Assembly (NCBI RefSeq): GCF_036365525.1
Contig: NC_090376.1
Location: 61,158,559 to 61,222,558 of the forward strand
Length of the DNA: 64,000 nt
Origin: Heterodontus francisci
Lineage: Eukaryota
Direction of reading: 5' to 3'
The notes below the pieces were generated by a model. The model saw nothing but the letters and a program-made list of their open reading frames with translations, was not told where the DNA came from and searched no databases. A program made the translations under genes and the position numbers. Shown one piece after another: positions 41,881 through 42,966 of the stretch (its first letter is position 1; every line of letters begins with the position of its first letter).

Positions 41881-42034
41881 CCAGGCATCATTAATCTTTG
41901 GAATGCTCTTCCCCAGAAAGCAATGGAGGATGGGTTTTTGAATACATTCAAGGCTGAGTTAGACAGATTTTTGATCTACAAGGGAGTCTAGGGTCATGGG
42001 GGAGCCAGCATGAAAGTGGGGTTTTGGCCACAAA

Positions 42035-42267
42035 CTTGGCAATAATATCAGAATCAGTCTTTGCATACTGAATCCACATTGGCTTGTCATAGAAGGGAAA
42101 GCCCTGCATCGATCTCAGAGCATTAGTAGCACTGCTCACGTCATTGAAGATCACAAAGGCCTGTCCCTGCATCTTCAGGTTCCTGGAGACGAGGATGTCC
42201 AGAATCTGGCCAAATTGGGAAAAGATGGCATAGAGCGATTTCTTCAATTCATCTTTTTTAATCTTTT
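42035..42267 (-). pseudogene. SNRPA: Processed fragment of SNRPA (U1 snRNP protein A, RRM1)
   Basis: [40 protein letters not shown]...[11 protein letters not shown] is nearly identical to U1A residues ~20-96; no introns. Confidence 0.92.
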
Positions 42268-42966
42268 TAATCATCTTTTTTAATCATCAGCCATGATCTT
42301 ACCGAATGATGCAGCAGGCTCGAGGGGCCAAATGGCCTACTCCTACTCCTGCTTCATATGATCTTATATTCAGTCCCCACTGTGGCCTGTCCTGTCAACA
42401 GACTTCTCTACTTACAAGTTGACAATTTTCACCCAGTGCAAGTGCTATGCAACAAATCGCATTTGTAGTATGCACTAGTATTCCCAATACATCCAATCGC
42501 CTAATTCCATTTCCCCCAGACAGAAATCAGCAAGAAAAATAAAAGCAGCATTACATTTCTGCTGAAGTTTGTTCACCTTGTCCAAAGAAGAGGAAATTTG
42601 GTTTAAGACTCCCAAATGGAGTACACAGAAGACCAGAAAAAAGAAAACATTAAAACCCGGCCGGTGTTGGGAGCGGGGGAGGAAATGGCAGCGAATGGAG
42701 AGGCATTTATCTGAGTCATGGGACAAGTACACACACATACTTGAGTTGGCAGAGTTTAGTCCATTCTGCTTGGACAGGATGAAGGCTATATAGAAAGGAG
42801 ATAGAGAGGTATCATTTATTGCATTCTGCTTCAATCAAATCTTGAAATGGTTCGGCAGTGTTCCCAGCAATCATGGAGAAGTCTGTGACCTAGTTTGTAG
42901 AGAAGGTGCTGACAAACAGAAAAGGAAAAGCAAATCTGATTTTATTCCAGTCATCAAGTTTCAAAC

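Follow-up and report, generated by a model that had tools for sequence, protein, structure and literature searches.

Our results indicate that a fragment of spliced SNRPA mRNA was copied into DNA and set into an old CR1-like repeat of Heterodontus francisci. The fragment lies in a window of 64,000 nucleotides (NCBI RefSeq assembly GCF_036365525.1, contig NC_090376.1, positions 61,158,559 to 61,222,558 of the forward strand), and all positions below are counted from the first letter of this window. We give an even chance to the reading that this patch is a cDNA copy of the interior of SNRPA mRNA used to mend a germline DNA break in an aged CR1 remnant (RMDR or class 2 templated insertion). The main rival to this break-repair reading is tailless retroposition. 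A sequence-only reading of the same DNA had offered two origins: break repair templated by mRNA or cDNA stands as our leading model, and a switch of template by the CR1 reverse transcriptase lost ground to the age of the patch and its apparent single copy.

The mRNA-derived part of the patch is 231 bp long and occupies 42035-42265 on the minus strand, corresponding to SNRPA c.58-288 and residues 20-96 of the splicing protein U1A. Translation of 42262-42035 (minus) gave U1A residues 21-96, which matched human U1A in phmmer with an E value of 4.9e-42 (71/76 identical); U2B'' was the weaker match (2.2e-33), and Pfam reported RRM_1. One of the five differences from human U1A, N48, also occurs in the U1A of one shark and in two frog sequences, and so does not belong to the insert alone. 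The first 19 residues and everything past K96 are missing. The sequence-only reading had placed ~233 bp of RRM1 here (residues ~20-96) with both mRNA ends absent; the RNA contigs, which match up to 42265, refine the length to 231 bp, and the match covers c.58-288 only. No other part of SNRPA was found elsewhere in the 64-kb window, and the insert sits away from its parent locus.

To read the structure of the template, contigs from RNA and DNA were compared. Four of 24 sequencing runs were aligned to the window, all as contigs; two are presumed to be RNA, and the others include DNA. Organism A is the same sample as the best DNA matches. Its RNA contig (X9 rec. 32) covered 42035-42265 gap-free with 5/231 differences, and that of organism B (X5 rec. 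24) covered the same span gap-free with 6/231 differences. Both contigs ran past both ends of the match, and a gap-free SNRPA match was obtained in each of the two RNA runs aligned, in a single contig each. The genomic contig of organism C (X16 rec. 16, 1008 bp) matched 42077-42247 only (record positions 522-692, 12 differences). Its match ends fall at c.246 and c.76, and the 521 and 316 bases beyond them are unlike the window. Human SNRPA exon 2 is c.74-246.

The insert can be divided accordingly, all on the minus strand. One-exon sequence, c.76-246, fills 42077-42247; 42 bases of the next exon, c.247-288, fill 42035-42076; and 16-18 bases of the preceding exon, c.58-73/75, fill 42248-42265. 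The two outer pieces adjoin the middle one without an intron, and both are present in both RNA contigs and absent from the organism C contig. Organism C depth in the bin 42053-42080 was 17.3, of which the exon contig accounts for about 2.7, and this points to a separate organism C contig on the next SNRPA exon. Since the RNA contigs are gap-free and the genomic contig stops at c.76 and c.246, the template was spliced. Read from the RNA contigs and the ends of the organism C match, the comparison shows an insert that crosses two exon junctions and is missing two introns, as expected of a retrocopy. The same conclusion had earlier been drawn from the human exon junctions. The donor is intact: the parent SNRPA mRNA contig of the same sample extends past both match ends.

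A DNA contig of organism A (X1 rec. 7) spans 41965-42339, including both junctions, with 0 differences. This result bears on an assembly chimera, which the sequence-only reading had named among the outcomes that would undo it, or cDNA contamination; we regard both as scarcely credible. The runs that share half or more of the words all come from one sample, probably the assembly source, and among the pieces listed none spans the whole 840-bp stretch. Against these two points, the contig crossing both junctions was built independently. Five differences between the insert and the mRNA contig of organism A, two of them CpG-type transitions, further make a cDNA chimera unlikely. Depth over the insert was flat at 3.12, against 2.8 over the unique right flank, and the summed depths of the CR1 flanks were in the thousands or more. 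A search for other CR1 copies carrying the patch, as had been suggested, found none among the 7,943 DNA contigs aligned from X1, a set from which the parent exon itself is absent. The patch appears single-copy.

Copy number also bears on copying at the DNA level, in which a processed SNRPA pseudogene or free cDNA was captured by end joining, or a longer retrocopy was trimmed. We consider this unlikely. In X1 the insert is covered by a single contig, and in X16 only the gene exon covers 42081-42220; the parent exon's absence from the X1 contigs means that other copies there could be missed. Two close transversions in the insert (c.180 and c.183) could come from an older copy, and breaks are documented to take up pre-existing DNA or cDNA as well as the products of direct reverse transcription (PMC4516963). 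Trimming of a retrocopy would require two exact deletions, the CR1 target being within 2-4 bases of intact.

The patch interrupts a CR1-like fragment that aligns with a reverse transcriptase-bearing copy at 8260-7757 in the window. Left of the patch, 41886-42033 (plus) carries the ORF2 end and the start of the 3' UTR, with 73% identity to 7964-7856 of that copy. Right of the patch, 42286-42360 (plus) carries the 3' end, with 79% identity to 7838-7757 and 77% to 63761-63825; relatives' contigs cease matching it at 42344-42360. An upstream part of the same fragment lies at 40590-40926 (plus, 66% to 8247-7977). We take the fragment to be CR1 from its ORF2 C-terminal motifs. It is split by a solo-LTR-like insertion of 954 bp (40927-41880, strand not assigned) with TG...CA ends and a 5-bp duplication, CCGGG/CCAGG. 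The CR1 alignment resumes in register across this element, which lies 150 bp from the U1A patch and has no second copy in the 64-kb window.

The fragment sits in an intron, ~12.5 kb long, of the dynein gene DYNC2H1, between coding exons at 43105-42967 (about residues 123-168) and 30456-30334 (about residues 167-207), both on the minus strand and placed by tblastn and splice sites. The patch starts about 680 bp past the donor of the former exon. On the minus strand of 3569-44335 we placed at least 15 coding exons of DYNC2H1, which together span about residues 66-735; exon 1 was not found in the 64-kb window. Within the same intron, a zf-RVT-bearing LINE fragment at 39771-40178 has 338-bp direct repeats on either side (38659-38996 and 40234-40571, 76% identical). 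The non-coding stretch 42585-42696 was covered by organism C DNA contigs at single-copy-like depth, with the adjoining unique flank uncovered (no X16 contig matched 42389-42584), and may be a conserved intronic element or a low-copy repeat.

Other repeats of the window were also recorded. An endogenous retrovirus occupies ~55860-63307 (plus), with LTR-like repeats at 55860-56423 and 62786-63307 that are 91% identical and with broken protease/RT, integrase and env-like frames. DDE transposase remnants, presumably Harbinger-like, lie at 12186-12818 (DDE_Tnp_4 match) and 27923-28568 (by likeness of the ORF text). Several degraded RT/GIY-YIG-like frames at 739-3098 resemble, by motif, Penelope-type elements; the segment 2475-3095 gave no Pfam match.

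The patch differs from SNRPA mRNA at 4-5 of 231 positions, or 1.7-2.2%. Four of these differences (c.155, c.180, c.183 and c.247) are private, and the fifth (c.156) is common to the insert and organism B. The CR1 flanks differ from the relatives' majority at 13/224 positions or more, and at 21/224 when eight positions read by eye from loose-end lines are added. Fisher's test on these divergences gave p of 0.026-0.055 with 13/224 and 0.0003-0.001 with 21/224; the conservative contrast is borderline, p reaching 0.055 when the insert is counted with five differences. Among the CR1 pieces listed, which are the longest and not the closest, the best showed 13/103 differences. The patch is probably younger than its CR1 host, as judged from about 2% against 6-9% or more. 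At five listed synonymous sites the insert groups with organisms A and B against C; it agrees with B at c.156 and with A at c.249, the differences of B being incompletely listed.

This age difference bears on the CR1 template switch, in which the reverse transcriptase would have moved during integration from CR1 RNA to SNRPA mRNA and back to CR1 RNA. In favour of such a switch, the patch lies about 75 bp from the CR1 3' end, at which synthesis starts, and on either side of it the CR1 sequence continues nearly in register. A switch would give a patch of the same age and sense as CR1. The insert is antisense to CR1, so the enzyme would need an antisense transcript, and it stands about 2% from the mRNA while the flanks stand 6-9% or more from their majority; together, younger age and antisense orientation argue against a switch made as the CR1 copy was being written. 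No second patched CR1 copy was seen among the 7,943 X1 contigs. We find the mid-synthesis switch, put forward earlier as an alternative, very improbable.

The two junctions were read against relatives' contigs. The insert lies antisense between GGCCACAA, which ends at 42033, and ATCAGCCATGATC, which starts at 42286. These motifs had been described as nearly adjacent in CR1 tails, and in relatives' contigs GGCCACAA and ATCAGCC are separated by about 4 bases (TCAG), though copies vary considerably. On the left, the mRNA-3' side, the junction reads AAC (42033-42035, plus), as placed from the sequence, the relatives' consensus, M97 and the repeat search: the flank ends at 42033, a single A follows at 42034, and cDNA begins at 42035. 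A T would be expected here both from the CR1 majority and from the mRNA, in which Met97 follows Lys96. Target complementarity at the mRNA-3' end is 2/3 bases (AAC against ATC), and the third would require a later T-to-A change at 42034. If 42034 was once T, as we infer, target and cDNA would share ATC and only AG would have been lost. The shared ATC at 42033-42035 would then be either 3 nt of microhomology used for priming or one of the two copies of a 3-4-bp duplication.

There is no poly(A) at the mRNA-3' end: the plus strand has no T-run or T-tract at 42034, and the insert ends at c.288, inside the CDS. Direct repeats of 5 bp or more were not found on the two sides of the insert: the repeat search gave at best AAC/ATC and AAAC/AATC, 3-4-mers with one mismatch each, and even from 3 bp upwards no exact duplication adjoins both junctions. 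The absence of an A-tail and of a target duplication, noticed earlier from the sequence alone, holds within these thresholds. The 2-4-bp deletion and the ATC microhomology are read relative to the relatives' consensus, and because this CR1 stretch varies between copies, microhomology, deletion and a 3-4-bp duplication (AAC/ATC, AAAC/AATC) cannot be told apart from that consensus. An empty CR1 reading CACAATCAGATCAGCC would mean a 2-bp deletion with ATC microhomology, i.e., break repair, and one reading CACAATCAGCC would mean a 3-4-bp duplication, i.e., a nick-primed event. The left flank (42023-42041) and the insert (42196-42214) also carry the two arms of an imperfect 19-nt inverted repeat. 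The arms agree exactly over an 8-bp core, and the repeat is likely due to chance. DNA folding of 42010-42310 gave nothing notable (z 0.50).

On the mRNA-5' side, 20 extra bases (42266-42285, minus) follow the point at which the RNA contig matches stop (42265), and these bases are absent from the mRNA contigs. They can be parsed as two renewed copies of c.60-72 of the insert itself (42251-42263), one of 7 nt and one of 13 nt, with 2 nt of microhomology at each switch. The motif therefore occurs three times at 42251-42285, as copies of 13, 9 and 13 bp, in agreement with the triple copy first noticed there. Exact tandem duplications with 9-20-bp units occur only twice in the 64-kb window, and this stutter is one of them; a placement that near, 15 bp or less from one of the junctions, has a probability of about 0.002. 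The stutter is tied to the junction more closely than chance would have it. The TCATC and ATC micro-repeats would also allow replication slippage to generate the three copies once the insert was in place.

A templated repeat within about 25 nt of a junction is a known scar of Pol theta end joining, and iterative templated insertion has been described for Pol theta/SD-MMEJ (PMC7407515). Such insertions share with the stutter a short direct repeat copied from within about 25 nt and 2-nt microhomologies (PMC7407515). The sequence-only reading had taken the stutter as a Pol theta mark that excludes target-primed retroposition, and this either/or fails: among zebrafish ZfL2-2 inserts, about half have 5' extra bases, many of them copied from the flank (PMC4245944), and Pol theta is one route that closes the 5' junctions of R2 (PMC13586686). 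Extra 5' bases are also reported for 12-15% of truncated L1 and Alu inserts (PMC2912911). A templated-insertion scar is common to break repair and LINE 5'-end joining, and it does not name the initiating event (PMC7407515, PMC4245944).

In the break-repair reading, the left DNA end (plus strand, about CACAATC) would pair with three mRNA bases at codons 96-97 and prime cDNA synthesis, most simply through a LINE reverse transcriptase acting without its endonuclease. Synthesis would proceed for 231 bases and halt in A-rich sequence at c.58-60. Next, the end of the cDNA would slip back and re-copy itself twice during the microhomology search of a Pol theta-type polymerase, before being joined to ATCAGCC with the loss of about 2-4 target bases, and the patch would drift neutrally thereafter. 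Net loss of target bases against the relatives' GGCCACAA-TCAG-ATCAGCC supports this sequence of events. L1 reverse transcriptase can act at Cas9 breaks without its endonuclease (PMC9237045), and cDNA ends self-prime ahead of joining (PMC11371274). The reverse-transcribing polymerase cannot be named from one scar. It seems to us quite improbable that the spliced mRNA was copied in trans by a polymerase of the host (Pol theta or zeta) instead of a retroelement enzyme, with iterative slippage sealing the patch; reverse transcription by a host polymerase is reported for Pol zeta, in cis (PMC12065846). If it were true, the slowly evolving, repeat-rich genomes of cartilaginous fishes would hold countable sets of such patches, with empty sites that could be rebuilt from thousands of CR1 sisters, and germline RNA-templated repair would become measurable outside mammals.

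An endonuclease-started event of the CR1/L2 type predicts a nearly identical scar. The two starts are not separated by it because CR1/L2 inserts usually have 3-5-bp duplications, the size at which these peak, and often 5' extras, many of them flank-copied (PMC4245944). We keep tailless 5'-truncated retroposition as a tentative alternative, in which a LINE protein (CR1/L2 or L1/Tx1 type) would nick the target, prime inside SNRPA mRNA and stop early; it is similarly tentative that the host then sealed the 5' junction with templated extras and a 0-4-bp target alteration. The stutter lies solely on the mRNA-5' side, where target-primed events get sealed, and AAC/ATC or AAAC/AATC could be what decay has left of a short duplication. 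Tailless retropseudogenes start from internal priming, with 2-18 nt of target complementarity, and 51 5'-truncated copies of histone mRNA are among them (PMC5322556). Cartilaginous fishes have 14,081 annotated retrocopies, ascribed to CR1 or Tx1 (bioRxiv 2026.06.26.734816), and the window itself holds the zf-RVT-bearing LINE fragment at 39771-40178. However, the tailless class is defined with discernible duplications and, of the species screened, which did not include sharks, only therians and anole had it (PMC5322556). The lack of an exact duplication at both junctions, the target loss implied by the relatives' consensus and an mRNA priming site that is not an A-run also weigh against it.

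The four private changes were examined for their effect on the protein. All are non-synonymous (R52Q, K60N, E61D and R83W), and two are CpG-type. K60, E61 and R83 are kept in 7/7 aligned vertebrate proteins and R52 in 6/7. The other between-species differences listed are all synonymous (7/7), and the contrast of 4/4 private against 0/7 between-species non-synonymous changes has a probability of 1 in 330, calculated by hand. Neutral drift gives four non-synonymous changes of four with a probability of 0.41. R52Q in U1A is a classic mutant that loses RNA binding; no paper on U1A R52Q was found in the literature searched. The private transversions at 42140 and 42143 (K60N and E61D) lie 3 bp apart and are possibly one multi-base event or reverse-transcription errors.

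The insert frame is open on the DYNC2H1 sense strand, and the stutter creates an in-frame ATG at 42274 that gives an ORF of 108 codons. A functional, exapted element, with the frame exonised into DYNC2H1 or translated as 108 residues from the 42274 ATG, would make use of these features. Several results make this hardly likely. All four private changes hit conserved residues, and the insert lacks residues 1-19, and with them the first beta strand of the RRM. No acceptor-like site was found between 42420 and the insert, and a donor-like site is present at 42305 instead. An open 77-codon frame is expected anyway at 2% divergence. No RNA run was listed among the strong matches to the stretch. Each of the two presumed RNA runs gave one parent-type contig over the insert and none with the private bases; contigs drop rare forms, so this result carries no weight for or against exonisation. 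The earlier observation of an open host-sense frame was confirmed by translation, and that frame carries the four non-synonymous changes and has no acceptor-like site upstream. From its sequence, the open frame looks like a reflection of youth, not function, and the patch is likely a non-functional, dead copy.

By itself, a short decaying cDNA fragment in an intron is of small weight. Its value lies in offering a clean natural example of tailless capture of spliced mRNA, without a clear duplication, in a non-mammalian germline. Retrocopy pipelines that call by intron loss would merge such patches with target-primed copies. A genome-wide search for doubly truncated cDNA pieces in CR1 tails would part break repair from retroposition, and existing assemblies suffice for it. 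In the literature listings covered, we found no report of this locus, of an SNRPA processed copy or of tailless or endonuclease-independent shark retrocopies.

Compared with known systems, the insert resembles ordinary retrocopies in being a neutrally decaying copy, without introns, of a housekeeping mRNA far from the parent locus. Unlike canonical target-primed retrocopies, it has no 3' UTR, no poly(A) tail and no target-site duplication of 5 bp or more. With tailless retropseudogenes (Schmitz 2004; Noll et al. 2015, PMC5322556), it shares a 3' end inside the RNA and the absence of an A-tail, and 5'-truncated mRNA copies are possible in that class. Those elements have discernible target duplications and are tied to relaxed L1 (PMC5322556), whereas the insert has no exact, perfect duplication and its priming site is not A-rich.

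The class 2 TSIPs of human (Onozawa and Aplan, PMC5110952) are closer. These lack a duplication and poly(A), show end-joining features and leave a donor gene that is intact and expressed; TSIP templates include cDNAs with several spliced exons, and experimental inserts measure 73-414 bp (PMC5110952). The insert likewise lacks poly(A) and any duplication of 5 bp or more; its template is distant, with an intact donor, and its 20 added nucleotides may be a mark of end joining. Class 2 TSIPs are human polymorphisms (PMC5110952), whereas the insert is known from one sample's allele. Cas9 breaks in mouse zygotes captured internal, intron-less and tailless fragments of Pcnt and Inadl (PMC4516963). 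Like the insert, these captures come from the interior of spliced mRNA, are truncated at both ends, lack poly(A) and show short or one-sided microhomology, and the Inadl capture (310 bp) is similar in size to the 231-bp insert (PMC4516963). The insert differs from them in being natural, inherited, aged by about 2%, found in a non-mammal and bounded by a triple self-copied junction. By analogy, it appears to work like RMDR or a class 2 templated insertion, a kind already described in mammals.
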